47,784 nt of DNA, from positions 1 to 47,784 of the forward strand of contig DRZV01000093.1 in NCBI GenBank assembly GCA_011375465.1, read 5' to 3'. This document shows positions 7,090 to 38,149 of the stretch, piece by piece. The notes below the pieces were generated by a model. It was given only the letters and a program-made list of their open reading frames with translations. It had not been told where the DNA came from and searched no databases. The stretch is from Neomoorella mulderi. Lineage in GTDB: Bacteria; Bacillota; DSM-521; Neomoorellales; Neomoorellaceae. The first letter of the stretch is position 1; each line of letters starts with the position of its first letter. The position numbers and the translations under genes were made by a program.

Positions 7090-7164
7090 TCCTCGGTAGC
7101 TCAATGGTAGAGCGCCCGGCTGTTAACCGGGTGGTTGCAGGTTCGAGTCCTGCCCGAGGAGCCA
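7090..7164 (+). tRNA. tRNA-Asn (GTT)
   Basis: Acceptor stem TCCTCGG/CCGAGGA, anticodon loop CTGTTAA, T-loop GGTTCGAGTCC, and an encoded CCA. Confidence 0.93.
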
Positions 7165-7168
7165 GTAC

Positions 7169-7243
7169 GGGCCCATAGCTCAACGGTAGAGCAGCGGACT
7201 CATAATCCGTTGGTTCCAGGTTCGAATCCTGGTGGGCCCACCA
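7169..7243 (+). tRNA. tRNA-Met (CAT), elongator type; a lysidine-modified tRNA-Ile2 cannot be excluded
   Basis: Acceptor stem GGGCCCA/TGGGCCC (positions 1-72 are paired, so this is not an initiator), anticodon loop CTCATAA, T-loop GGTTCGAATCC, and an encoded CCA. Confidence 0.85.
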
Positions 7244-9204: not shown

Positions 9205-9578
9205 AGGGCCTTTGAGTAAACCGGATGGCCGCGGGTTGCCCTTCAAGGGCAGCCTGAGGAAAGTCCGAGCTCCACAGGGCAGGGTGCTGGATAACGTCCA
9301 GTGGGGGCGACCCCAAGGAAAGTGCCACAGAAACAGACCGCCTGGCGGTTTTTGAGGGCCGCCGGGTAAGGGTGGAAAGGTGAGGTAAGAGCTCACCAGC
9401 AGTTAGGCGACTAACTGGCTAGGCAAACCCCACCCGGAGCAAGACCGAATAGGGGGGCAGTCAAGGGGTGGCCCGCCCCGCCCCCGGGTAAGGTCGCTCG
9501 AGGTGCCAGGCAACTGGCATCCCAGATAGATGGCCATCCTCGACAGAACTCGGCTTACAGGTTTGCTCAGAGGCCCTT
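9205..9578 (+). ncRNA. rnpB: RNase P RNA, bacterial type A
   Basis: Universal P4 strands GAGGAAAGTCCGAGCTCC and ACAGAACTCGGCTTAC. GGTAAGGGTGGAAAGGTGAGGTAAGAGCTCACCAG is the type-A signature. P1 pairs agggcctttgagtaaacc (9205-9222) with ggtttgctcagaggccct (9560-9577), and P2 pairs ggatggcc with ggccatcc. The ends are approximate, within about 5 nt. Confidence 0.9.
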
Positions 9579-21859: not shown

Positions 21860-22839
21860 ATGGCCATGGGAGAGGTGCTTTCTCAAGCGGAGATAGACGC
21901 CCTGTTGCAGGCCATCAGCAGCGGGGAAGTGCAGATGGAGGACCTGAAGGAACAGGCTGAGGAGGGTAAGGTCAAAAGATACGACTTCCGCCGGCCCAAC
22001 AAATTTTCTAAGGAGCAGTTGCGCACCCTTTACATGATCCATGAAAACTTCGGGAGGATGGTGGCCAATTTCCTTTCCGCCTATTTGAGGGCCAACATCC
22101 AGGTGAAAATCATCTCCGTAGAACAGATGACCTACGAAGATTTTGCCCTCTCCTTGCCCACCCCCACTTTGATGAACATCTTCCCCCTGGATCCCCTGAA
22201 GGGTTCTGGGGTTCTCCAGGCAAATATGAACTTTGTATTCCCCATCATAGATCTCCTATTCGGGGGCAGGGGGGAGATGCTTCCCATAACCCGGGATTTC
22301 ACGAGATAGAGCTTCACGTGTTAAAGCGCTTATCCAATCGCCTGCTGGAGCAGCTTGTCTACTCCTGGTCCGATCTTCAGAAATTTACCCCCAAACTGGA
22401 GGGGATAGAGACCAACCCCCAGTTTGCTCAGGTGATTTCCCCCAACGAGACCGTAGCGGTTATAACCCTTTCCACTAAAGTGGGCCAGCAGGAAGGCCTA
22501 TTGAATTTATGCCTCCCCTATATGATGCTGGAGCCTCTCCTCTTTCGCCTTTCCACCAGCCAGTGGCTGGCTTCCACCAGCAATGGGGAGGAGAGGGGGA
22601 AATATCGGCTAACCCTGGAGAAGATCCTGGCCCAGGTGCCTGTGGAGCTGATAGCTTATTGCGGAAGGACAAAACTCAGGGTGAGGGACTTTATCCAGCT
22701 TCGGGAAGGGGATATCATCACGCTGGATCAGGAGATCGATAAAGATCTGGAGCTTTACGTGGACGGAAAGTTGAAGTTTAAAGTACAGCCGGGGATCCAA
22801 GGGGGAAAGCTGGCAGTTCAGATAACGGAGGTGCTTTAA
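21860..22839 (+). pseudogene. fliM: Flagellar motor switch protein FliM, frameshifted
   Basis: The N-terminus LSQAEIDALL is the CheY-P binding motif, and the two ORF-track pieces are 21860-22309 and 22318-22839. The expected ...RDFTEIELHVLKRLSN... requires one more G at about 22303 (acgagatag versus acgGagatagag). The span is 980 nt (3n+2). Confidence 0.8.
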
Positions 22840-26926: not shown

Positions 26927-27499
26927 ATGGAGAGGTTATCGCTGAGCCAAGCGCTGAGTTCTGGTCAAGCCTTTAAAGAGCGCATAGAGGCTGCCAGCGG
27001 AGTCACCTTGAGCCGCTGTTATCAATGCGGCAAGTGCACAGCTGGGTGTCCCGCCTCCTCCGGCATGGACTACGGGCCCAGGGGCATCATCCGCCTCCTT
27101 CAGTTGGGATTATATGAAAAGGCCATGAGAAGCAACACACCCTGGATTTGTGCGGGATGTCAGACATGCTACGTCCGTTGTCCCAGGGATATCGATATGC
27201 CCAAGCTGATGGAGGCGGTGCGGCAAGAAGCCTGCCGGCGGGGGATTGTGGGCGATAAAAAGACGGAGGTGTTCGACCGGGCGTTCCTGCGGAGCATCGA
27301 GAGGTTCGGTCGTCCCCATGAAGCCAGCATCATGGGGGAATATAACTTGTTGACGGGCCAGCCCTTCAAAGATATAATGTCCGGTCCTGCTATGCTGGCC
27401 AGGGGAAAACTAGCCCTTTTGCCCTCCCGCATCAAGAATATTTCAGAAATAAAAAAAATTTTCGCCCGGGTGAGGGCTAAAGGAGGGGAAGCCAGGTGA
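26927..27499 (+). CDS. hdrC: Heterodisulfide reductase subunit C-like (two 4Fe-4S motifs)
   Basis: CYQCGKCTAGCP and CAGCQTCYVRCP motifs, with a size and position typical of HdrC. Confidence 0.8.
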   Translation: MERLSLSQALSSGQAFKERIEAASGVTLSRCYQCGKCTAGCPASSGMDYGPRGIIRLLQLGLYEKAMRSNTPWICAGCQTCYVRCPRDIDMPKLMEAVRQEACRRGIVGDKKTEVFDRAFLRSIERFGRPHEASIMGEYNLLTGQPFKDIMSGPAMLARGKLALLPSRIKNISEIKKIFARVRAKGGEAR

Positions 27500-28377
27500 A
27501 ATATGCCTATTATCCCGGCTGCGCTCTGGAGACCACTGCCAAGGAGTACGATCACTCCACCAGGCTGGTGGCCCGTCACCTGGGAGTGGAGCTATGGGAA
27601 ATACCTGATTGGAACTGCTGTGGGGCTTCGGCAGCCCACCGGGTTGATCACCTTTTGGCCCTGGCCCTTCCTGCTCGGGTCCTGGCCCTGGCGGAAGAGC
27701 AGGGGCTGGATATAGTGGTGCCCTGCGCCGCCTGCTACAACCGCATGAAGGCGGTGGAGAAGGCGGTGCGGGAGTCGGAGGAGATGAGGAAAACCATCGA
27801 GGAGATAATCGAACGCAGTTACAAGGGCAGCGTCAGCGCCCGTTCTGTCCTGGACGTGCTGATAAACCAGGTGGGTTTGGAGAGCATCAAGGCCCAGGTG
27901 AAAAGGCCTCTGGCGGGGCTCAAACTGGCGGCCTATTATGGCTGCCTCTGGGTAAGGCCCCCCTGCATAACCGCCTTTGACGATCCCGAGGATCCCATGA
28001 CCATGGACCGCCTGGTGGAGGCCCTGGGGGGTGAAGCGGTTCCCTGGCCCTATAAAACCGAGTGCTGTGGAGCCAGCTTGCCCACCGCCCGCACCGACGT
28101 GGGGCTCGGGATGGTGTACCAAATACTGCGGCGGGCCCAGGAGGCTGGGGCTGTGGCCATAGTCACCGCCTGTCCCATATGCCATTTAAATCTGGATATG
28201 AGGCAGAAGCAGGTGGAGGCCGCCTTCCAGGAGGAGTTCAACCTCCCCATATTCTATTTCACCGAACTTATGGCCGTGGCTTTTGGATATTCACCCAAGG
28301 AGGCAGGGCTGACCACCCACTTCGTCAACCCCCTGCCCCTTTTAGAATCCAGCCTTGAGAGGAGGGAAACGGCGTGA
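27496..28377 (+). CDS. hdrB: Heterodisulfide reductase subunit B-like (two CCG domains)
   Basis: [30 protein letters not shown] and CPICH are duplicated CCG-domain signatures. The GTG start overlaps the hdrC stop. Confidence 0.85.
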
Positions 28378-30356
28378 AGCGGGTAGGCGTGTTCGTCTGC
28401 CACTGCGGCTCCAATATTGCCGGGGTGGTGGATGTAAAAAAGGTGGCAGAGGCAGCCAAAGAATTCCGGGACGTGGTCTTTGCCACCGATTACGAGTATA
28501 TGTGCTCTGATCCTGGACAGGAGCTCATCCGCAAGGCCATCAATGAGCACCAGCTCAACCGAGTGGTGGTGGCCTCCTGTTCCCCTCGGCTTCACGAGGA
28601 GACCTTCAGGAGATGCTGTGAGAGCGCGGGCCTAAACCCCTACCTCTTTGAGATGGCAAACCTCAGGGAACAGGTGGCCTGGTGCCACGCCAAGGATAAG
28701 GAGGCAGCCACCGCAAAGGCCATCGAACTGATCAGGGGTGCGGTGGCCAAGGTAAGGCGGAGCGCTCCTTTGACTCCCGGGGTAGTCCCCATCACCAAAA
28801 AGGCCCTGGTCATCGGCGGTGGCATAGCGGGGATCCAAGCTGCCCTGGATATTGCGGATGCCGGCTATAAAGTGACCCTGGTGGAAAGGGAGCCCACCAT
28901 AGGGGGAGCCATGGTAAAGCTGGATAAGACCTTCCCCACCCTGGACTGCTCTGCCTGAATAAGCACCCCCAAGATGGTTGCCGCGGCGCGGCATCCCAAT
29001 ATAGAGCTTTTGACTTACTCAGAAGTGGAAGACGTATCCGGTTATGTGGGCAATTTTGAAGTCACCATCAGGAAGAAGGCCCGGAAGGTGGACGCCACCA
29101 AATGCCGGGGATGCGGTGTGTGCTGGGAAAAATGTCCCACCAAAGTGGATAGCGAATTCGAACAGGGCCTGGCCAAGAGAAAGGCCATCTATATCCCCTT
29201 CGCCCAGGCCGTGCCGGCCATACCAGTGATAGATCAAGAGCACTGCCTGTATTTCACCAAGGGAAGGTGCGGTGTGTGCCAGAAGGTTTGCCCGGCCAAG
29301 GCCATAGACTACGAGCAACAGGACGAGATCATCAAGGACAAGTTCGGGGCAATAATAGTGGCCACGGGCTTTGAACTGTTCAACTGGAGGGAGGTTTACG
29401 GCGAATACGGTTATGGCAAGTATCCCGATGTGATCGACAGCATGCAATTTGAGCGGCTCAACGTTTCCTCCGGTCCCACCGGCGGCAAAATCCTCAGGCC
29501 TTCCGACGGCAGGGAGCCCAAAACGGTGGTATTCATAAAGTGTGTGGGTTCCCGGGATGAAGCCAAGGGTAAGAGCTACTGTTCCCGGGCCTGTTGCATG
29601 TACACCGCCAAACATGCTCATCAGGTTCTGGAAAAGATACCCGGAGCCCAGGTTATAGTCTTCTACATGGACATTCGCACCCCGGGCAAGGCCTACGAAG
29701 AATTCCTGGAGAGGACTATACACGAAGGGGCCATCTATGTAAGGGGGAGGGTAAGCAAGGTATTCCCGGAAGGGGATAAGCTCATAGTCAAGGGAGAAGA
29801 CACCCTATTGGGTCGCCCTGTAGAGGTGGCTGCCGATCTGGTGGTGGTGGTCCCTGCCATGGTGCCCAGCCGGGGATGGGATAAGCTGGCCAAAATGCTG
29901 GGGTTGCAGACAGATAAGGACGGCTTCTTCCAGGAGGCCCATCCCAAACTGAGGCCGGTGGAGACCTTCACCGCAGGGGTATTCCTGGCGGGCGCCTGTC
30001 AAGGACCTAAGGACATCCCCGATACGGTAGCCCAAGCCAGCGCGGCCGCCGCCAAAGCAATTCTGTTGCTCTCCAAGGACGAGATGGCTACCGAGCCCAT
30101 GGTGGCTTCTGTAGACCAGAGCGTGTGCGCCGGATGCGGTCTCTGCGTGGAGGTCTGCCCCTACAAGGCCATCTCCTTGACCACCATCGCCGAGAGGGTG
30201 GGCGGCAGAGAGATCACCAGGCAGGTGGCCACCGTCAATACCGGCCTCTGTCAGGGTTGCGGCAGCTGCGCCGTCACCTGCCCCTCCAGTGCCATGAATC
30301 TCAAGGGCTTCACCAATGAACAAATTCTGGCGGAGGTGGACGCCATATGTCTATAG
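28374..30356 (+). CDS. hdrA: Heterodisulfide reductase subunit A, with an in-frame UGA (probable selenocysteine) at 28956-28958
   Basis: [12 protein letters not shown], the FAD motif [32 protein letters not shown], the ferredoxin motifs [33 protein letters not shown] and [12 protein letters not shown]. The two ORF-track pieces are in the same frame. Confidence 0.85.
28976..28996 (+). promoter_or_regulatory. Candidate SECIS hairpin for the hdrA UGA
   Basis: ggttgccg / cggcatcc stem (one T-T mismatch) with loop cggcg, starting 20 nt after the U of the UGA. Confidence 0.45.
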
Positions 30357-30784
30357 CTGCCGAGGAGAAACAGTGGGAACCCAAAATAGTGGCCTTTTGC
30401 TGCCACTGGTGTTCCTATGCGGCTGCCGATCTGGCTGGTTTAAGCCGCCTGCAGTATCCTCCCAATGTGAGGATCATAAGGGTTCCCTGTTCCGGCAGGG
30501 TGAACCCCCAGTTCGTGCTGAGGGCTTTCCAGCGGGGGGCCGATGGGGTGCTGGTGGCGGGGTGACACCCCGGAGAATGCCACTATGGTAGTGGCAATTA
30601 CTATGCCCGCCGGCGCCTCTTGCTTCTGCAAAAGGTTTTACAATTCATGGGTCTGGAGCCGGAAAGGTTTCAAGTCAAGTGGATATCGGGTTCAGAAGGA
30701 CCCCGGTTCGCTCAAGCTATCCAGCAGATGACCGAACAGGTTAAGGCTCTAGGACCCAATAGAAAGTTGAGGGATCGGGTATGA
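30347..30784 (+). CDS. mvhD: MvhD/FlxD-like iron-sulfur subunit, with an in-frame UGA (probable selenocysteine) at 30563-30565
   Basis: [28 protein letters not shown], and [29 protein letters not shown]. The frame stays open to TGA 30782-30784, which overlaps the next ATG (ATGA). The ORF track shows only the first 72 aa. Confidence 0.8.
30578..30596 (+). promoter_or_regulatory. Candidate SECIS hairpin for the mvhD UGA
   Basis: tgccacta / tagtggca 8-bp stem with loop tgg, starting 15 nt after the U of the UGA. It can be extended with a bulge (aat...aatt). Confidence 0.5.
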
Positions 30785-31680
30785 GCCTGCAGGACAAGAT
30801 GAGGGAAAGGGCAAGGGAATTGCTGGAGAGCGGTGCGGTGAACATGGTCATAGGCTGGGAAAAGGGCACGTTTTGGTACCTTTCCCCGCCGGCCTTCATC
30901 ACCACTCCCGAAGAGGCGGATCGCCTGGTTTGGGACGAGTTTTGCCTGAACAACCTCTCTAAATATCTTCTGGACTACAGAAACACAGACGATAAAATCG
31001 CCCTTTTTGTAAAGGGATGCGACTCCAGAAACGTGGTGCGGCTTTTACAGGATAACCAGTTCCCCCGGGAGAGGCTTTACCTTTTAGGCATAAAGTGCCC
31101 GGGCCTCAAGGATAGCCGGGCAGCTAGCCTGCTAGGAGAGGAGAAGAGGGCAGAACTGCCCTTGGCCCCCAAGTGTGTGGGCTGTACCCATCCCGAGCCG
31201 GTAATCTATGACGAGCTCCTGGAGGCGGGAGTCTCAGGGGATCTGGGGTCTCCGGAGAAGCGCTTTGAAGATGTGGAGAAGATCGAGGCCATGTCCTACG
31301 ATGAGAGATACGCCTTCTGGGTCAATGCCTACGCCCGTTGCATCCGCTGTTATGCTTGTCGCAACGTGTGTCCCGCTTGCGATTGCCGGGAATGCATCTT
31401 CGACCGCACCCAGACCGGCTGGTGCGGTAAGCAGATGGGGCTTACCCAGAACATGTTCTTTGCCATCACCCGGGCCCTGCACGTGGCTGGCCGATGCACC
31501 GAATGCGGCGAATGCGAGAGGGTTTGTCCCCAGCGTTTACCCATAATGACCCTCAACCGTAAGATCATCAAGGAATTAAACGCCCTGTTCGGGCCCTATG
31601 AAGCAGGTGTCAGCTTAGAGGCCAAGCCCCCGGTGGTGGAATACCGGCCCGACGATCCGGACTTTGAAGAAAGGAGGTAG
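30781..31680 (+). CDS. Iron-sulfur protein, FlxC-like (FrhB/HydB-related)
   Basis: CIRCYACRNVCPACDC and CTECGECERVCP cluster motifs. It lies immediately after mvhD. Confidence 0.6.
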   Translation: MSLQDKMRERARELLESGAVNMVIGWEKGTFWYLSPPAFITTPEEADRLVWDEFCLNNLSKYLLDYRNTDDKIALFVKGCDSRNVVRLLQDNQFPRERLYLLGIKCPGLKDSRAASLLGEEKRAELPLAPKCVGCTHPEPVIYDELLEAGVSGDLGSPEKRFEDVEKIEAMSYDERYAFWVNAYARCIRCYACRNVCPACDCRECIFDRTQTGWCGKQMGLTQNMFFAITRALHVAGRCTECGECERVCPQRLPIMTLNRKIIKELNALFGPYEAGVSLEAKPPVVEYRPDDPDFEERR

Positions 31681-31684
31681 GGGG

Positions 31685-32686
31685 ATGTACAAGCTGGCTA
31701 CGGAAAAGCTGCCGGAACTGCTGCAGTGTTGGTCCCAGGGGGCTACGGTCTACGTGCCCCAGAAGGTGGGGGAAGTCACCCTTTTCCGCCCCTTTAAGGG
31801 TCAAGGAGATCTGGCCCTGGGAGAAGGCAATACCCTGGAGCCCCCTAAGGATCTCTTCTTCCCCCGTACGGAAAAGCTTTATGATTACTGGGCCAGCGGC
31901 AAAGAGGCCAGGTTGGAGCCTGTGGAGCTGCATCCGGATAGGGCCGTGCTGGTGGGGGTGCGCTCCTGTGATGCCCGCAGCTTCCTGCTCCTGGATCAGG
32001 TCTTTCTCACCAGGGGTTATGTAGATGAGTTCTATAAAAAGCGCAGGGAAAACACCGCTGTCGTGGCCCTGGCCTGTACCCAGGCGGCCCCCACCTGCTT
32101 CTGCACCTCCTTTGGTATAGACCCGGGGAGAGCAGAAGGGGTGGATGTGCAGATGTGGCCTGTGCCAGGAGGCTATCTCCTGGAGGCCCTTACCCCCAGG
32201 GGGGAAGAGATGCTGAAGCAGGCTTCCGGCCTCTTGGCCCCTGCGGAGGGAGAGAAGATACCGGCCCCTGCCCAGCCTTCCCTCCAGGTGGAACTGGAAG
32301 GGTTGGTGGAAAAACTGCAGAAGATGTTCGACCATCCTTACTGGGGGGAACTAAGCCGCAAGTGTCTGGGCTGCGCCATCTGCACCTATCTCTGCCCCAC
32401 CTGTCACTGTTTTGATATAGACTGCGAGACAATAGAGACTTCCGGTTACAGGTTCCGCTGCTGGGACACCTGCCTTTTTGCCCATTACACCCTGATGGCA
32501 GGGGGCCGTAATCCCCGGCCCACCAGGAAAGAAAGGCTCCGCAACCGCCTCCTCCACAAGCTTCAATACTTTGTGGAGCGTTATGGCCAGTTTGCCTGCG
32601 TGGGATGCGGTCGCTGCCTTGAGCTCTGCCCGGTGAATGTGGATATCACCAAGGTCATCCGGGACGTAAAGGAGGTGAGCTTATAA
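31685..32686 (+). CDS. Iron-sulfur protein, FlxB-like (AsrA / sulfhydrogenase beta-like)
   Basis: CLGCAICTYLCPTCHC and CVGCGRCLELCP motifs. I prefer the ATG at 31685 after RBS gaaaggagg over the upstream TTG in the ORF track. Confidence 0.65.
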   Translation: MYKLATEKLPELLQCWSQGATVYVPQKVGEVTLFRPFKGQGDLALGEGNTLEPPKDLFFPRTEKLYDYWASGKEARLEPVELHPDRAVLVGVRSCDARSFLLLDQVFLTRGYVDEFYKKRRENTAVVALACTQAAPTCFCTSFGIDPGRAEGVDVQMWPVPGGYLLEALTPRGEEMLKQASGLLAPAEGEKIPAPAQPSLQVELEGLVEKLQKMFDHPYWGELSRKCLGCAICTYLCPTCHCFDIDCETIETSGYRFRCWDTCLFAHYTLMAGGRNPRPTRKERLRNRLLHKLQYFVERYGQFACVGCGRCLELCPVNVDITKVIRDVKEVSL

Positions 32687-33516
32687 TGGCAGATGTGGCC
32701 ACTGGCAATCCCCTTGTCCCCATGCCAGCCCGTATAGTCAAAATCGTGGAGGAAACCCCCGACACCAAGACCTTCTATATATCCACCGATCAGGGCAAGC
32801 CCTTCACCCCTAAACCGGGACAGTGCGTCATGCTCTCCCTTTTGGACGTGGGGGAGGGTATGTTTTCGGTAACCTCCCAGGGGCCGGATCACCTGGAGAT
32901 CGCCATCAGGAAGGTGGGGGTGCTCACCACTGCCCTCCATGAAGCAGAGGTGGGCCAGGTGGTGGGCATAAGGGGGCCCTATGGCAATGGTTTTCCTGTA
33001 GAGGAGATGAAGGGCAAGGATATGCTCTTCATAGCCGGCGGCATAGGTCTGGCTCCGGTGCGCTCGGTCATCAACTACTGTATAGAGCACCGGGAAGACT
33101 ATGGACACCTGTGGATCATCTACGGCGCCCGGACCCCCACCGACCTCTGTTTCAAAGAGGATCTGTTCAACAACTGGCCCAAAGTGGAAAACTGCCGGGT
33201 GGACGTCACTGTGGACCGGGCCGATGAAAAGTGGACGGGGCCGGTGGGATTTGTCCCTCCCTTCGTGGAGCAGCTAAAGCCTTCCCCTGAAAACAGGATC
33301 GCCATTGTCTGCGGTCCCCCCATAATGATCAAACTGGTTCTGGAAACCCTGGCCAAGTTGGGGTATAATGATGAGCAGATAATAACGACCCTGGAGATGC
33401 GCATGAAATGCGGCATAGGTAAGTGTGGCCGGTGCAATCTGGGCAGCAAATATATATGCTTGGATGGGCCGGTCTTCACCTTTGCCCAGTTAAAGCTCTT
33501 ACCCAGCGAATACTGA
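32686..33516 (+). CDS. FAD/NAD(P)-binding oxidoreductase with C-terminal 2Fe-2S, FlxA-like (PyrK/AsrB/HydG-like)
   Basis: GQCVMLS, RGPYGNGF, the NAD(P) motif FIAGGIGLAPV, and C-terminal CGIGKCGRCNLG. TAATG overlaps the preceding gene. Confidence 0.75.
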   Translation: MADVATGNPLVPMPARIVKIVEETPDTKTFYISTDQGKPFTPKPGQCVMLSLLDVGEGMFSVTSQGPDHLEIAIRKVGVLTTALHEAEVGQVVGIRGPYGNGFPVEEMKGKDMLFIAGGIGLAPVRSVINYCIEHREDYGHLWIIYGARTPTDLCFKEDLFNNWPKVENCRVDVTVDRADEKWTGPVGFVPPFVEQLKPSPENRIAIVCGPPIMIKLVLETLAKLGYNDEQIITTLEMRMKCGIGKCGRCNLGSKYICLDGPVFTFAQLKLLPSEY

Positions 33517-34434: not shown

Positions 34435-35442
34435 ATGCTGAGCTTACCCATGTCCCTGCTTTTAAGCCTGACGATGATCCTGGTGGGGGCTAAAGGCTTT
34501 GCCAACGGCGTGGAGTGGCTGGGCAGGAAACTGAACCTCAGGCAAGGGGCTGTGGGCAGCATCCTGGCAGCGGTGGGGACTGCCCTGCCGGAAACCCTCG
34601 TGCCCCTCGTGGCCATCCTCACTCGAGCCAACAGCAGTCAAGGCAGCGATATAGGGATAGGAGCTATTTTAGGGGCCCCTTTTATGCTGAGCACCCTGGG
34701 CTTTCTCGTAACAGGCCTGGCTGTATGGATGCACCGGGGCCGTCGGAGCGACTTCCCCCAATTGCGGGTGGAAACCCAGGTCATAGCCCGGGATCTGGGT
34801 TTCTTCCTGGTCTGCTACAGCCTGGCGCTAGCCGCCTCCTTCAGCCCGGGGTCCCTGGCGAAGAAAGGGGCCGCCCTCATTCTGGTGGTCATTTATTTTG
34901 TATACACCTATCTCTGCCTCACCCGAGGGCAAACCCTGGGGGAAGCGGGCATTTGTCCCCCCTGCCTTTATTTCAATCCCGAGAGGGCCGAACCCAGAAC
35001 CTCCCTGATCATATTTCAGGTCCTCTTTTTCCTGGGCCTCATCCTGGTGGGGGCCAGACTTTTCGTCCTGGGCCTTTCCCGCCTGGCCGAAATGCTGGGA
35101 GTCCCCCCCTCTATCTTGGCCCTGATAATCGCGCCTATAGCCACCGAGCTTCCGGAAAAATGTAGCAGCGTCATCTGGGTATATCAGAGAAAGGACACCC
35201 TGGCCCTGGGGAACATGACAGGGGCCATGGTATTTCAGGGCTCCCTTATCCCCGCCCTGGGGATGGCTCTGACCGATTGGCGTCTTTCCCCTGCTGGCCT
35301 GTTCAGCGCTCTTCTTGCCCTCCTTATGGCCTCTTTGGTCCTGGGGCAGATCCGGAAAAAGGGGTACCTCACCGTATATCCGCTTTTGGCCGGAGGCATA
35401 TTTTACCTCTTATTTATCCTGACAACCCTTCGAGCTATTTAA
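34435..35442 (+). CDS. CaCA-family cation exchanger (YrbG/Na+:Ca2+ exchanger-like membrane protein)
   Basis: Two alpha-repeat signatures, GSILAAVGTALPE and ALIIAPIATELPE, in a polytopic hydrophobic protein. The ATG at 34435 follows RBS gggagggaggg. The upstream part of the ORF-track ORF is the riboswitch. Confidence 0.8.
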   Translation: MLSLPMSLLLSLTMILVGAKGFANGVEWLGRKLNLRQGAVGSILAAVGTALPETLVPLVAILTRANSSQGSDIGIGAILGAPFMLSTLGFLVTGLAVWMHRGRRSDFPQLRVETQVIARDLGFFLVCYSLALAASFSPGSLAKKGAALILVVIYFVYTYLCLTRGQTLGEAGICPPCLYFNPERAEPRTSLIIFQVLFFLGLILVGARLFVLGLSRLAEMLGVPPSILALIIAPIATELPEKCSSVIWVYQRKDTLALGNMTGAMVFQGSLIPALGMALTDWRLSPAGLFSALLALLMASLVLGQIRKKGYLTVYPLLAGGIFYLLFILTTLRAI

Positions 35443-35464
35443 TTTGCTCTTGGGGGGTGATTAA

Positions 35465-38149
35465 ATGCATCCATGGCACAGCTGGACTCTCCATGAAGTT
35501 TTGGAAAAATTGGCTACCGACCCGACAGAGGGCCTCAGCTCCGCGGAGGCCTAGGCCCGCCTGGAAAAATACGGGCCCAATCTCCTTCAAGAAGGTCCGC
35601 CCAAAGGGCCTTGGCCCATTCTGCGGGAGCAGTTCACCGGGGCCCTGGCCCTCCTCCTCCTGGCGGCCGCGGCGGTGTCGTTTCTCCTGGGAGAGTATAA
35701 AGACGGCCTTGCCATCTTGGTAATCGTGGTTTTAAACGCCCTTCTCGGTTTTATCCAGGAATACCGGGCTGAGAAGGCGATGGAGGCGCTCAAAAAATTT
35801 TCTGTCCCCCGGGCAAAGGTGCTGCGGGAGGGCAGAATTCAGGAAATATCCGCCCAGGAGCTGGTCCCTGGAGACGTCTTCTTCCTGGAAGCGGGTGATG
35901 TGGTGCCTGCGGACGGCCGCCTCCTGGAGGCCGCCAACCTCAGGTTGCTGGAGGCCATCTTGACCGGTGAATCGGTCCCGGTGGATAAAGATCCTTCCGC
36001 CATAATTCCGGCAGAGGCACCTTTAGGCGATCGGAATAACATGGTCTACAAGGGGACCACTGTGGCTTTCGGCCGGGGAACAGCCGTGGCCACCGGTATG
36101 GAGACAGAGCTGGGGCGCATCGCCGGTATGATCCAGAGGGTGGAGGCCGAGCCCACCCCTTTTCAACGGCGCATGGCCGCACTGGGCCGCACTTTGGGAT
36201 TGATAGCCTTGGCGATTGTGGTAGCGGTGACCCTGTTGGGGATTTTACGGGGCGAGCACCCGAAAACCATGTTTCTCACTGGAGTGAGCCTGGCGGTGGC
36301 CGCTGTGCCGGAAGGGCTCCCCGCTGTGGTCACCATTACCCTGGCCCTGGGGGCCCAGAAGATGCTGAGGCGTCGCGCCCTTATCCGCAGGCTTCCCGCT
36401 GTAGAAACTTTGGGCTCGGTCACCAAGATATGCACCGACAAGACCGGAACCCTAACCCAGAACCGGATGACCGTCACCGCCCTGGCCCTGCCCGTCCGGG
36501 ACCTGGACAGGAGGGTTGAGGTTTTTTCTTTTTCCGGGGAAAAGCCCGCCTCTTTGCCCCCGGCAGCCCATTTTTTGCTGGGGGCCGGTGCCCTCTGCAA
36601 CGATGCCGTCTTAACCCCAAAGGGGGAGGAGTTTTCTTATATAGGGGATCCCACTGAAGGCGCCCTGGTTATGGCCGCCATGCAGCTGGGTTACTCCAAA
36701 CCCCAACTGGAAGGGGCCCTTCCTCGCCTGGCGGAGTTACCTTTTTCTTCTGAGCGGAAGCGGATGACCACCATTCACCAGGTGGGCGGGAACTGCCGGG
36801 ACCTCTGGGCGGAGTTTTTGGGTAGGGGAGATCCGCCGCCCCACGTCCTTTTCACCAAAGGCGCCTTCGACCTCCTTTTACAGGCCTGCAACGGAGTATG
36901 GGTAAACGGCAAAATAGAACCCCTGGATGAATGGCGAAAGGAGCTGGAGCAGACCAATGGGGAGCTCTCCCAGGCAGGTCTGCGGGTGTTGGCGGTGGCC
37001 TTCCGTTTTTTAGCTGCCCTGCCCCAGGAGGTTACAGAGGAACTGGAAAAAGACCTTGTTTTCCTGGGGCTGGTGGGAATGATGAATCCTTTGCGGCCAG
37101 AAGCCAAGGGGGCGGTGGAGACCTGCCGTCAAGCGGGAATCGACCCGGTAATGATTACCGGCGATCACCCCCTCACTGCCCTGGCCATTGCCCGGGAACT
37201 GGGCCTTGATACAGGGCGCATTTTAACAGGCAGCCAACTGGACGGATTTTCGCCGGAAGATCTGGTCCAAATTGCTGAAGAGGTGGCTGTCTATGCCCGG
37301 GTTTTCCCCTCCCATAAGCTCAAGATAGTGGAAGCTTTACAGCGCAGAGGGCATGTGGTGGCCATGACCGGCGACGGGGTAAATGACGCTCCTGCCTTGA
37401 AGAAAGCCGACATCGGGGTGGCCATGGGAGTTGCCGGAACCGATGTGGCCAAAGAGGCTGCCGATATGGTGCTTCTGGATGATAATTTTGCCACCATTGT
37501 AGCTCCAGTGGAAGAAGGCCGGGTGATCTACGACAACATCCAAAAGTTCCCTAAATATCTAATGGCCACCAATCTGGGCGAGATCCTAATCATTTTTGCC
37601 GGTATTTTATGTGGAACGCCAGTGCCCTTGGCGCCGCTCCAGATCCTCTGGATCAATCTGGTCACGGACGGTCTTCCGGCCCTCGCCCTGTCGGTGGAGC
37701 CGGCTGAGGAAGGGGTCATACGCCGCCCCCCACCTGACCCCAAGGCCAGCCTTTTCGCCGGGGGTTTGGGCACGCATATTCTCTGGGTTAGCGCCTTGAT
37801 GGCAGCCACATGTCTTGGTGTCGGTTATTGGTTTTGGCAGCTGGGCCAGCCTTCCTGGCAGACAATCCTTTTCACCACCCTTGTCTTCGCCCAATTGGCC
37901 CATGTACTGGCTGTGCGCACAGGGCGGATTCCCCTTTTAAAGGCCGGTCTCCTCTCCAATCCCGCCGCTTTGGGGGCCGTCCTGTTGAGCATGGCCTTAC
38001 AGCTGGCGGTTATCTATCTGCCTCCTCTGCAGGAGGTCTTCCGTACTGTTTCTTTGACCCCTACCCAGCTCCTCCTCTGTTTCTTTCTGGGCAGCCTGGT
38101 ATTCTGGGTAGTAGAGGCCGAGAAATGGTTCCGGTGCCCTCGTCCCTGA
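35465..38149 (+). pseudogene. P-type ATPase, type IIA (SERCA/PMR1-like Ca2+/Mn2+ pump) with an in-frame TAG at codon 30
   Basis: From the ATG at 35465 (RBS gggggtga): MHPWHSWTLHEVLEKLATDPTEGLSSAEA-TAG(35552-35554)-ARLEKYGPNLL..., the standard N-terminus of this family. It continues in frame into the 824-aa ORF with LTGESVPV, CTDKTGTLTQN, MITGDH and GDGVNDAPALKKA. Confidence 0.8.

Follow-up and report, generated by a model that had tools for sequence, protein, structure and literature searches.

An in-frame UGA codon in hdrA of contig DRZV01000093.1 is very probably read as selenocysteine, and the adjoining mvhD gene probably carries a second one

Introduction

HdrA, a subunit of heterodisulfide reductase, has been established as a selenoprotein of Methanococcales (PMC2933860), and bacterial HdrA proteins containing selenocysteine (Sec) were described in Clostridia and Deltaproteobacteria, including Syntrophobacter fumaroxidans (Zhang et al. 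2006, PMC1794560). The same 2006 study listed Sec-HdrA together with Sec-FrhD, of the MvhD family, in Desulfotomaculum reducens, Moorella thermoacetica, Syntrophomonas wolfei and Carboxydothermus hydrogenoformans (PMC1794560). Here, we describe a stretch of 47,784 nucleotides (nt) formed by contig DRZV01000093.1 of Neomoorella mulderi (hereafter the window), in which a sequence-only reading had joined two open reading frames (ORFs) into a single hdrA gene with an internal UGA as a probable Sec codon. The statement of that reading that HdrA is known as a selenoprotein in methanogens and anaerobic bacteria agrees with the literature (PMC2933860, PMC1794560). The window hdrA is a further member of the Sec-HdrA set catalogued in 2006, mis-annotated as two ORFs. 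Judging from the comparisons presented below, it is very probably one gene, in which codon 195 (UGA) would be decoded as Sec through bacterial SelB and an element termed SECIS (Sec insertion sequence).

The position in question has been characterised structurally. In Cys-type structures, one HdrA protomer supplies Cys197 as a ligand for the N-terminal [4Fe-4S] cluster in its partner protomer (PMC9012536). The cryo-electron microscopy structure of the Methanococcus maripaludis Hdr-Vhu-Fwd complex, published in 2026, contains Sec197 (U197) at this place, modelled in a Se-S bridge linking the N-terminal cluster and flavin adenine dinucleotide (FAD), with density consistent with a selenosulfide bond (PMC13518236). 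Its authors proposed U197 as an electron relay between cluster A3 and FAD, and they call its role unresolved (PMC13518236).

The window resembles these systems to different degrees. In HdrA(u) of M. maripaludis and Methanocaldococcus jannaschii (PDB 9sfi; PMC13518236, PMC2933860), Sec occupies the identical column, VhuD/MvhD is also a selenoprotein, and the HdrABC core and the bifurcating FAD are as in the window. The archaeal SECIS is located in an untranslated region and has another structure (PMC13188914), whereas the element of the window lies within the ORF. The electron-input module of the window looks like Flx (linked to reduced nicotinamide adenine dinucleotide (phosphate), NAD(P)H), unlike the archaeal Vhu hydrogenase or Fdh, and no methanogenesis context surrounds it. 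The Cys-type HdrA of Methanothermococcus thermolithotrophicus/M. wolfeii (PDB 5ODC) is colinear over its full length, with Cys197 where the window has UGA. The bacterial Sec-HdrA proteins (PMC1794560) are the nearest counterparts, belonging to the same family and sharing both the in-ORF mode of the SECIS and an adjoining gene for a Sec-containing FrhD/MvhD. The window differs from them in that it comes from another, uncultured organism, carries a compensatory C-G hairpin pair accompanied by a Gln-to-Arg replacement, and is annotated as two ORFs. Relatives from Pelotomaculum, Desulfofundulus, Syntrophomonadaceae and Moorellales have the same hdrA hairpin as the window. With the SECIS elements of Escherichia coli fdhF and fdnG, which are the best-characterised hairpins that bind SelB, the window shares an in-ORF hairpin that directly follows the UGA and has a G in its apical loop, as well as a spacing within 16-37 nt, but no sequence resemblance; many bacterial SECIS elements are unlike those of E. 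coli (review, PMC13188914).

Results and Discussion

The interrupting codon is TGA at a conserved cysteine column

The two ORFs, 28374-28958 and 28974-30356, share one frame and are split by TGA at 28956-28958 followed by 15 nt (28959-28973) free of stop codons. The coordinates given in the sequence-only reading were exact, and reading through the TGA yields a product of 660 amino acids (aa). This joined product was aligned to the crystallised HdrA 5ODC_A (residues 3-656 against 5-647, E = 1e-229) with no gap at the UGA, and it also matched four other HdrA structures, each at E <= 1e-200. U195 aligned to C197 of 5ODC_A and to the non-standard residue X197 of 9sfi_A. The HdrA motif previously recognised at the site is common to 5ODC in the form FPT-x-DC-x-x-C-I-x-x-PKM, and Cys197 of that protein corresponds to the UGA of the window. 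Pfam domains flank the UGA in the joined protein, with Pyr_redox_2/FAD_oxidored (Rossmann/FAD) at 143-243 and Fer4 families at 238-258 and 576-641, as in the HdrA domain set with its inserted and C-terminal ferredoxin domains. The N-terminus carries CHCG...C...C, and VIGGGIAG represents the FAD Rossmann (GxGxxG) motif.

A scan for relatives, restricted to one genome per species, returned 80 loci that were 56-81% identical to the query, the closest genome match to the window HdrA being Peptococcaceae bacterium UBA12545 (81% identity). The homologous codon was TGA at 24 of the 80 loci and TGC or TGT at the other 56, and TAA or TAG was found at none (0/80). The frame past the TGA was open and conserved at all 24 TGA-type loci and in the window, which gives 25 interrupted genes, all with TGA. 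The TGA-type hdrA genes originated from Peptococcaceae, Pelotomaculum, the cultured Desulfofundulus australicus DSM 11792, Moorellales, Thermoanaerobacteraceae, Syntrophomonadaceae and two deltaproteobacterial/Thermodesulfobacteriota genomes. The alignment of the joined product that the sequence-only reading had proposed thus shows Cys or UGA across 81 homologues, at the known Sec197/Cys197 position of HdrA. Close relatives whose HdrA truly ends here, named there as one finding that would speak against recoding, were not found among these loci, as each interrupted relative has TGA and a continuing frame. Among the full-length homologues in protein databases, Cys was present at the site in 119/119 and 'U' in none of these 119 matches; the window itself is represented there only by the 460-aa fragment.

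The second residue after the Sec/Cys site (28959-28964 in the window; compared with loci L001-L080) depends on the gene type, being Ser, Gly or Asn in TGA-type genes of Firmicutes but Leu or Met in Cys-type genes. Leu at this residue was also seen in the TGA-type Firmicute L024 and in the two deltaproteobacterial TGA-type genes. The difference could come from the nucleotide context after the UGA or from packing around selenium.

Two independently assembled Joint Genome Institute metagenome contigs (metagenomes 3300003902 and 3300003649), 99.1% identical to the window and with 4-5 differences within hdrA, both keep the TGA, which excludes a sequencing error or a private pseudogene. The explanation that the TGA arose by an error of sequencing or assembly, or that hdrA is a recent pseudogene, can draw on fliM of the same window (21860-22309/22318-22839), which is apparently frame-broken and shows that errors or decay occur in this assembly. 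Nevertheless, the TGA is also found in 24 other genomes, that of the cultured D. australicus strain included, and the remaining ORF is intact and 57-81% identical to functional HdrAs, so that we consider such an origin extremely improbable.

A conserved hairpin follows the UGA in TGA-type genes

The sequence-only reading had placed a GC-rich hairpin 20 nt after the U of the UGA, and it is present as described, at 28976-28996. The spacer between the UGA and the hairpin has the properties of coding sequence. Its amino acids are kept in the TGA-type genes (T in 21/23, P in 23/23), with a third-position entropy of 1.7-1.9 bits, and this combination of kept amino acids and free third positions indicates that the spacer is translated.

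These data bear on the possibility that hdrA is truly split, translation stopping at UGA 28956 and restarting at ATG 28974 to give a two-piece HdrA of 194 and 460 aa. Automatic gene callers return exactly these two products on window-like contigs, and split and fused HdrA variants both occur in nature (PMC9012536, PMC1794560). However, no Shine-Dalgarno sequence precedes ATG 28974, unlike the GGAGG ahead of GTG 28374, and the five codons that would be intergenic are under purifying selection at the protein level; re-initiation at this ATG was rejected on these two grounds. A split would also lose the conserved cluster ligand equivalent to Cys197 and leave the conserved hairpin just downstream of the presumed restart codon, and all 25 interrupted genes (25/25) use TGA, at the Cys column. 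We therefore regard a truly split gene as highly unlikely. Recoding in a single gene, favoured from the beginning over a split, is supported by the Cys/UGA column, by the Sec197 position and by the conserved and covarying hairpin.

The hairpin was located at the same position in 22/22 Firmicute TGA-type relatives. Across the 23 TGA-type sequences, 98.4% of the cells were paired, a value as high in 12 of 500 shuffles, and two hairpin pairs had changed on both sides. One of these changes is found in the window, where a stem pair has gone from U-A to C-G; the first substitution (GCU to GCC) is silent, and the second (CAG to CGG) replaces Gln with Arg. The unusual ...AAARHP... sequence of the window is explained by this compensatory change. 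The RNA structure thus constrains the protein in the V-A-A-A-Q/R-H-P segment, with the Gln-to-Arg replacement restoring the base pair. The other change, from C-G to U-A at another stem pair, occurred in L005, and six sequences have a U-G wobble at that pair.

Synonymous sites provided a further comparison between the two gene types. The third-position entropy of the five hairpin codons was 0-0.43 bits in TGA-type genes and 1.7-2.0 bits in Cys-type genes, while in TGA-type genes it was 1.7-1.9 bits at codons 3-4, two to three codons 5' of the hairpin. Only TGA-type hdrA genes show suppressed synonymous variation, and they show it nowhere but at the hairpin codons. Cys-type hdrA genes formed a mean of 3.4 of the eight hairpin pairs.

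A covariance model was trained on the 22 relatives, leaving the window out, and the 47.8 kb were searched on both strands. The window site scored 66.8 bits (E = 5e-21) and was the only strong match in the window. Homologous Cys-type sites scored 8.7-28.9 bits, with the exception of L002, the closest Cys-type relative, at 43 bits; this site looks like a decaying SECIS remnant. L002 (6586-6629, Cys-type) and L031 (6583-6626, TGA-type) are hdrA-mvhD operons that are both present in one genome, that of Moorellaceae bacterium Kamch4342-3A-MB-01, an arrangement that recalls Methanococcus with its paired Sec and Cys isoenzymes.

The two deltaproteobacterial TGA-type genes, L028 (2589-2650) and L050 (4162-4220), have a different hairpin, GGAUGRYGGAGUCAUCC, located 13 nt after the UGA. 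The lineages thus have the Sec codon in common but use different signals to recode it.

Fit of the hairpin to the bacterial SECIS model

The window hairpin is formed by the pairs (positions 289xx) G76-C96, G77-C95, U79-A93, G80-C92, C81-G91, C82-G90 and G83-C89, with a U78.U94 mismatch; C84-G88 is optional, leaving an apical loop of GGC (or CGGCG). The stem begins 20 nt after the U of the UGA, behind the 17-nt spacer, and the apical loop begins 26 nt after the UGA. The published bacterial SECIS (bSECIS) model defines a loop of 3-9 nt, an upper stem of 4-16 base pairs (bp), G in the first two loop positions, a distance from UGA to loop of 16-37 nt and a minimum free energy <= -7.5 kcal/mol (PMC13188914). 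The check with a bacterial SECIS predictor, suggested in the sequence-only reading, was carried out with our own simplified re-implementation of this model, limited to contiguous stems, and not with bSECISearch itself. In this implementation the window hairpin passed the rules, having a loop of GGC (or C-GGC-G), a contiguous upper stem of 6 bp with 2 outer bp, and a spacing of 26 nt. The contiguous stem had an energy of -8.7 kcal/mol, and the full hairpin one of -11.7 kcal/mol.

The threshold of -7.5 was reached by 2/24 TGA-type relatives in the simplified scan, the contiguous stems of most relatives lying between -5.5 and -7.2. This reflects the implementation and not the element, because the simplified scan does not count the two pairs lying outside the U.Y mismatch. 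When folded within 60 nt of sequence, the full hairpins of the TGA-type relatives reached about -10 to -15 kcal/mol.

Several observations weigh against the decoding of this UGA as Sec. The Firmicute TGA-type genes are one related clade, with few independent events and two double-changed pairs only. The stability of the 60-nt downstream fold is not unusual for a sequence of 56% GC (z = -0.32 against shuffles), and a hairpin passing the rules of the simplified model follows some 6-7% of arbitrarily chosen positions or of TGA triplets in the window. No match at the hdrA element was returned by Rfam 15 over the whole window at gathering thresholds; at E <= 10 over 28800-29200, the sole match was a chance-level t44 on the minus strand, with no SECIS family. 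Finally, selA, selB, selD and tRNA-Sec were not found in the 47.8-kb window (ARAGORN, Rfam and NCBIfam scans of ~30 ORFs). The evidence beyond chance for the hairpin is comparative, not thermodynamic.

The UGA could also be read without selenium, as Trp or Gly under a reassigned code or by a near-cognate or Cys-charged tRNA, with the hairpin merely slowing the ribosome. Other organisms are known to insert Cys at Sec-UGA codons when selenium is limiting, and this counts in favour of such read-through. In the window, however, TGA is the ordinary stop of 11/34 family-supported genes, hdrC and hdrB just upstream included, and a genome-wide reassignment of UGA is thereby excluded. The column is Cys, which Sec replaces, and not Trp or Gly, and the hairpin spacing and the loop G fit the SelB-type SECIS model. 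Selenium-free read-through is accordingly a very improbable explanation, and decoding as Sec is preferred.

The adjoining mvhD/flxD gene contains a second in-frame UGA

The gene that overlaps the end of hdrA is mvhD/flxD-like and probably constitutes a second selenoprotein gene, as suggested by the same kinds of sequence comparison. In its short ORF, the Pfam FlpD match stops at profile position 59 of 123, whereas the match of the joined product to VhuD runs from end to end, over profile positions 1-128 of 132. MvhD/FlxD has a Cys-rich motif, GC(U)HxGxCHY, into which the UGA falls; the residue at this codon is assumed here to be a [2Fe-2S] ligand. The homologous codon was TGA in 23/23 Firmicute-type operons with TGA-type hdrA, the window included. 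It was Cys (TGC/TGT) in 51 genes, namely in 50/50 of the Cys-hdrA operons in which mvhD was found and at the deltaproteobacterial TGA-hdrA locus L028.

This UGA is also followed by a hairpin, which begins 12 nt past the codon, has its loop 20 nt after it and reaches -10.1 kcal/mol. All eight pairs were formed in 23/23 TGA-type genes, in comparison to a mean of 4.9/8 in Cys-type genes. The third-position entropy in TGA-type genes was ~0 bits at codons 6-9 and <= 0.43 at codons 5-11, and 0.7-1.9 in Cys-type genes; as in hdrA, synonymous variation in mvhD was suppressed only in TGA-type genes. The presence of two adjacent genes, each with a UGA at a Cys column and with its own conserved hairpin, makes Sec decoding in this organism very likely.

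Proposed mechanism and implications

We infer selenium insertion, SelB binding and a redox role of Sec195 from the sequence comparisons, and the following course of events may be envisaged. The mRNA hairpin inside the reading frame, 17 nt past the UGA, would act as the Sec signal. SelB, presumably bound to this hairpin, would bring Sec to the ribosome stalled at the UGA, competing there with release factor 2. Thereafter the ribosome would melt the hairpin and translate it as M-V-A-A-A-R-H-P. The predicted product is a Sec-containing HdrA of 660 aa, the FAD-containing electron-bifurcating subunit, whose putative partners encoded nearby are HdrB, HdrC, a Sec-containing MvhD/FlxD and three Flx-like iron-sulphur (FeS)/NAD(P)H-binding proteins.

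In the Firmicute Flx-Hdr operons, the Sec codons of HdrA (U195) and MvhD/FlxD occurred together in 23/23 cases, the window included. It seems unlikely, in our estimation, that this reflects a functional matched pair of seleniums tuning both gates of the bifurcating flavin and not shared ancestry. If such functional pairing were true, the NADH-linked complexes with Sec/Cys paralogues (L031/L002) would give a handle on the role of Sec197.

The main value of these results lies in annotation. Public gene calls split HdrA into 194 + 460 aa and cut MvhD to 72 aa, while the true products are probably selenoproteins of 660 aa and 145 aa. The corrected genes mark the organism as a selenium user and correct metabolic models of its electron-bifurcating Hdr-Flx complex. 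Our comparisons covered 25 hdrA genes of the TGA type and 56 of the Cys type, together with 23 TGA-type and 51 Cys-type mvhD genes, and they define two clostridial SECIS hairpins that are well conserved and have no counterpart in Rfam. The current understanding of selenoproteins is unchanged by the finding.

Operon and genomic context

The hdrC- and hdrB-like genes lie directly 5' of hdrA, with overlapping stops and starts, and three flx-like genes follow mvhD/flxD (Table 1). The order of these flx-like genes (30781..33516) is repeated in contigs L081/L082.

Table 1. Coordinates of the hdr-flx-like genes and of the recoding features in the window
Feature	Position	Strand	Details or basis
hdrC-like, 2x[4Fe-4S] protein	26927..27499	+	TGA stop
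hdrB-like, two CCG domains	27496..28377	+	TGA stop overlaps hdrA start
hdrA	28374..30356	+	660 codons; GTG start with GGAGG Shine-Dalgarno 5'; TAG stop 30354-30356; UGA = codon 195
In-frame UGA, proposed Sec codon (U195 = Cys197/Sec197 of archaeal HdrA)	28956..28958	+	codon column, structure alignment
Spacer between UGA and hairpin	28959..28975	+	17 nt, codes I-S-T-P-K-(M)
hdrA SECIS-like hairpin GGUUGCCGC-GGC-GCGGCAUCC	28976..28996	+	8 bp, one U.U mismatch; G at loop positions 1, 2
mvhD/flxD-like gene	30347..30784	+	145 codons; in-frame UGA 30563-30565 (...GVLVAG-U-HPGECHY...)
mvhD SECIS-like hairpin UGCCACUA-UGG-UAGUGGCA	30578..30596	+	8 bp, mismatch-free
flxC-like FeS protein	30781-31680	+	domain content
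flxB-like, AsrA/HydB-like FeS protein	31664-32686	+	domain content
flxA-like, FAD/NAD(P)-binding [2Fe-2S] protein	32686-33516	+	domain content

By its content the operon would be of the FlxABCD-HdrABC type, and its function is presumably NADH-linked and electron-bifurcating, as suggested by the domains of the encoded proteins. The NADH-linked FlxABCD-HdrABC heterodisulfide reductase was described for Desulfovibrio and discussed for Desulfotomaculum (PMC4759654). The hdrC-hdrB-hdrA-flxD(mvhD)-flxC-flxB-flxA arrangement of the window matches the FlxABCD-HdrABC genes of Desulfovibrio vulgaris (Ramos et al. 2015, as cited in PMC4759654) by domain content and order.

The window opens inside grdD (17-1006), encoding the alpha subunit of component C of the glycine/sarcosine/betaine reductase complex, a gene that would fit a selenium-using organism. 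GrdA and GrdB of the glycine-reductase pathway are classic selenoproteins (PMC13188914), and their genes may lie just upstream of the window. The SpoVD, FliM/FliY and RpoD genes point to a flagellated, spore-forming Firmicute, which is uncultured.

The fliM gene seems broken, as its two ORFs (21860-22309 and 22318-22839) are in different frames and cover FliM profile positions 1-143 and 150-318, respectively; either a frameshift or an error of assembly has occurred, or fliM is a pseudogene. The ORF for a P-type Ca-ATPase (35675-38149) begins at profile position 73, and the N-terminus of the protein seems to be missing. ORF 35277-35723 was tested as the N-terminal part and gave no Pfam match. 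On the 99%-identical contig L081 (7359-10012), the Ca-ATPase gene is called in four pieces, which suggests that this region holds frameshifts or assembly errors. The stretches 7090-7243 and 9213-9573 of the window contain tRNA-Asn(GTT), tRNA-Met(CAT) and a class A RNase P RNA, all of them ordinary housekeeping RNAs.

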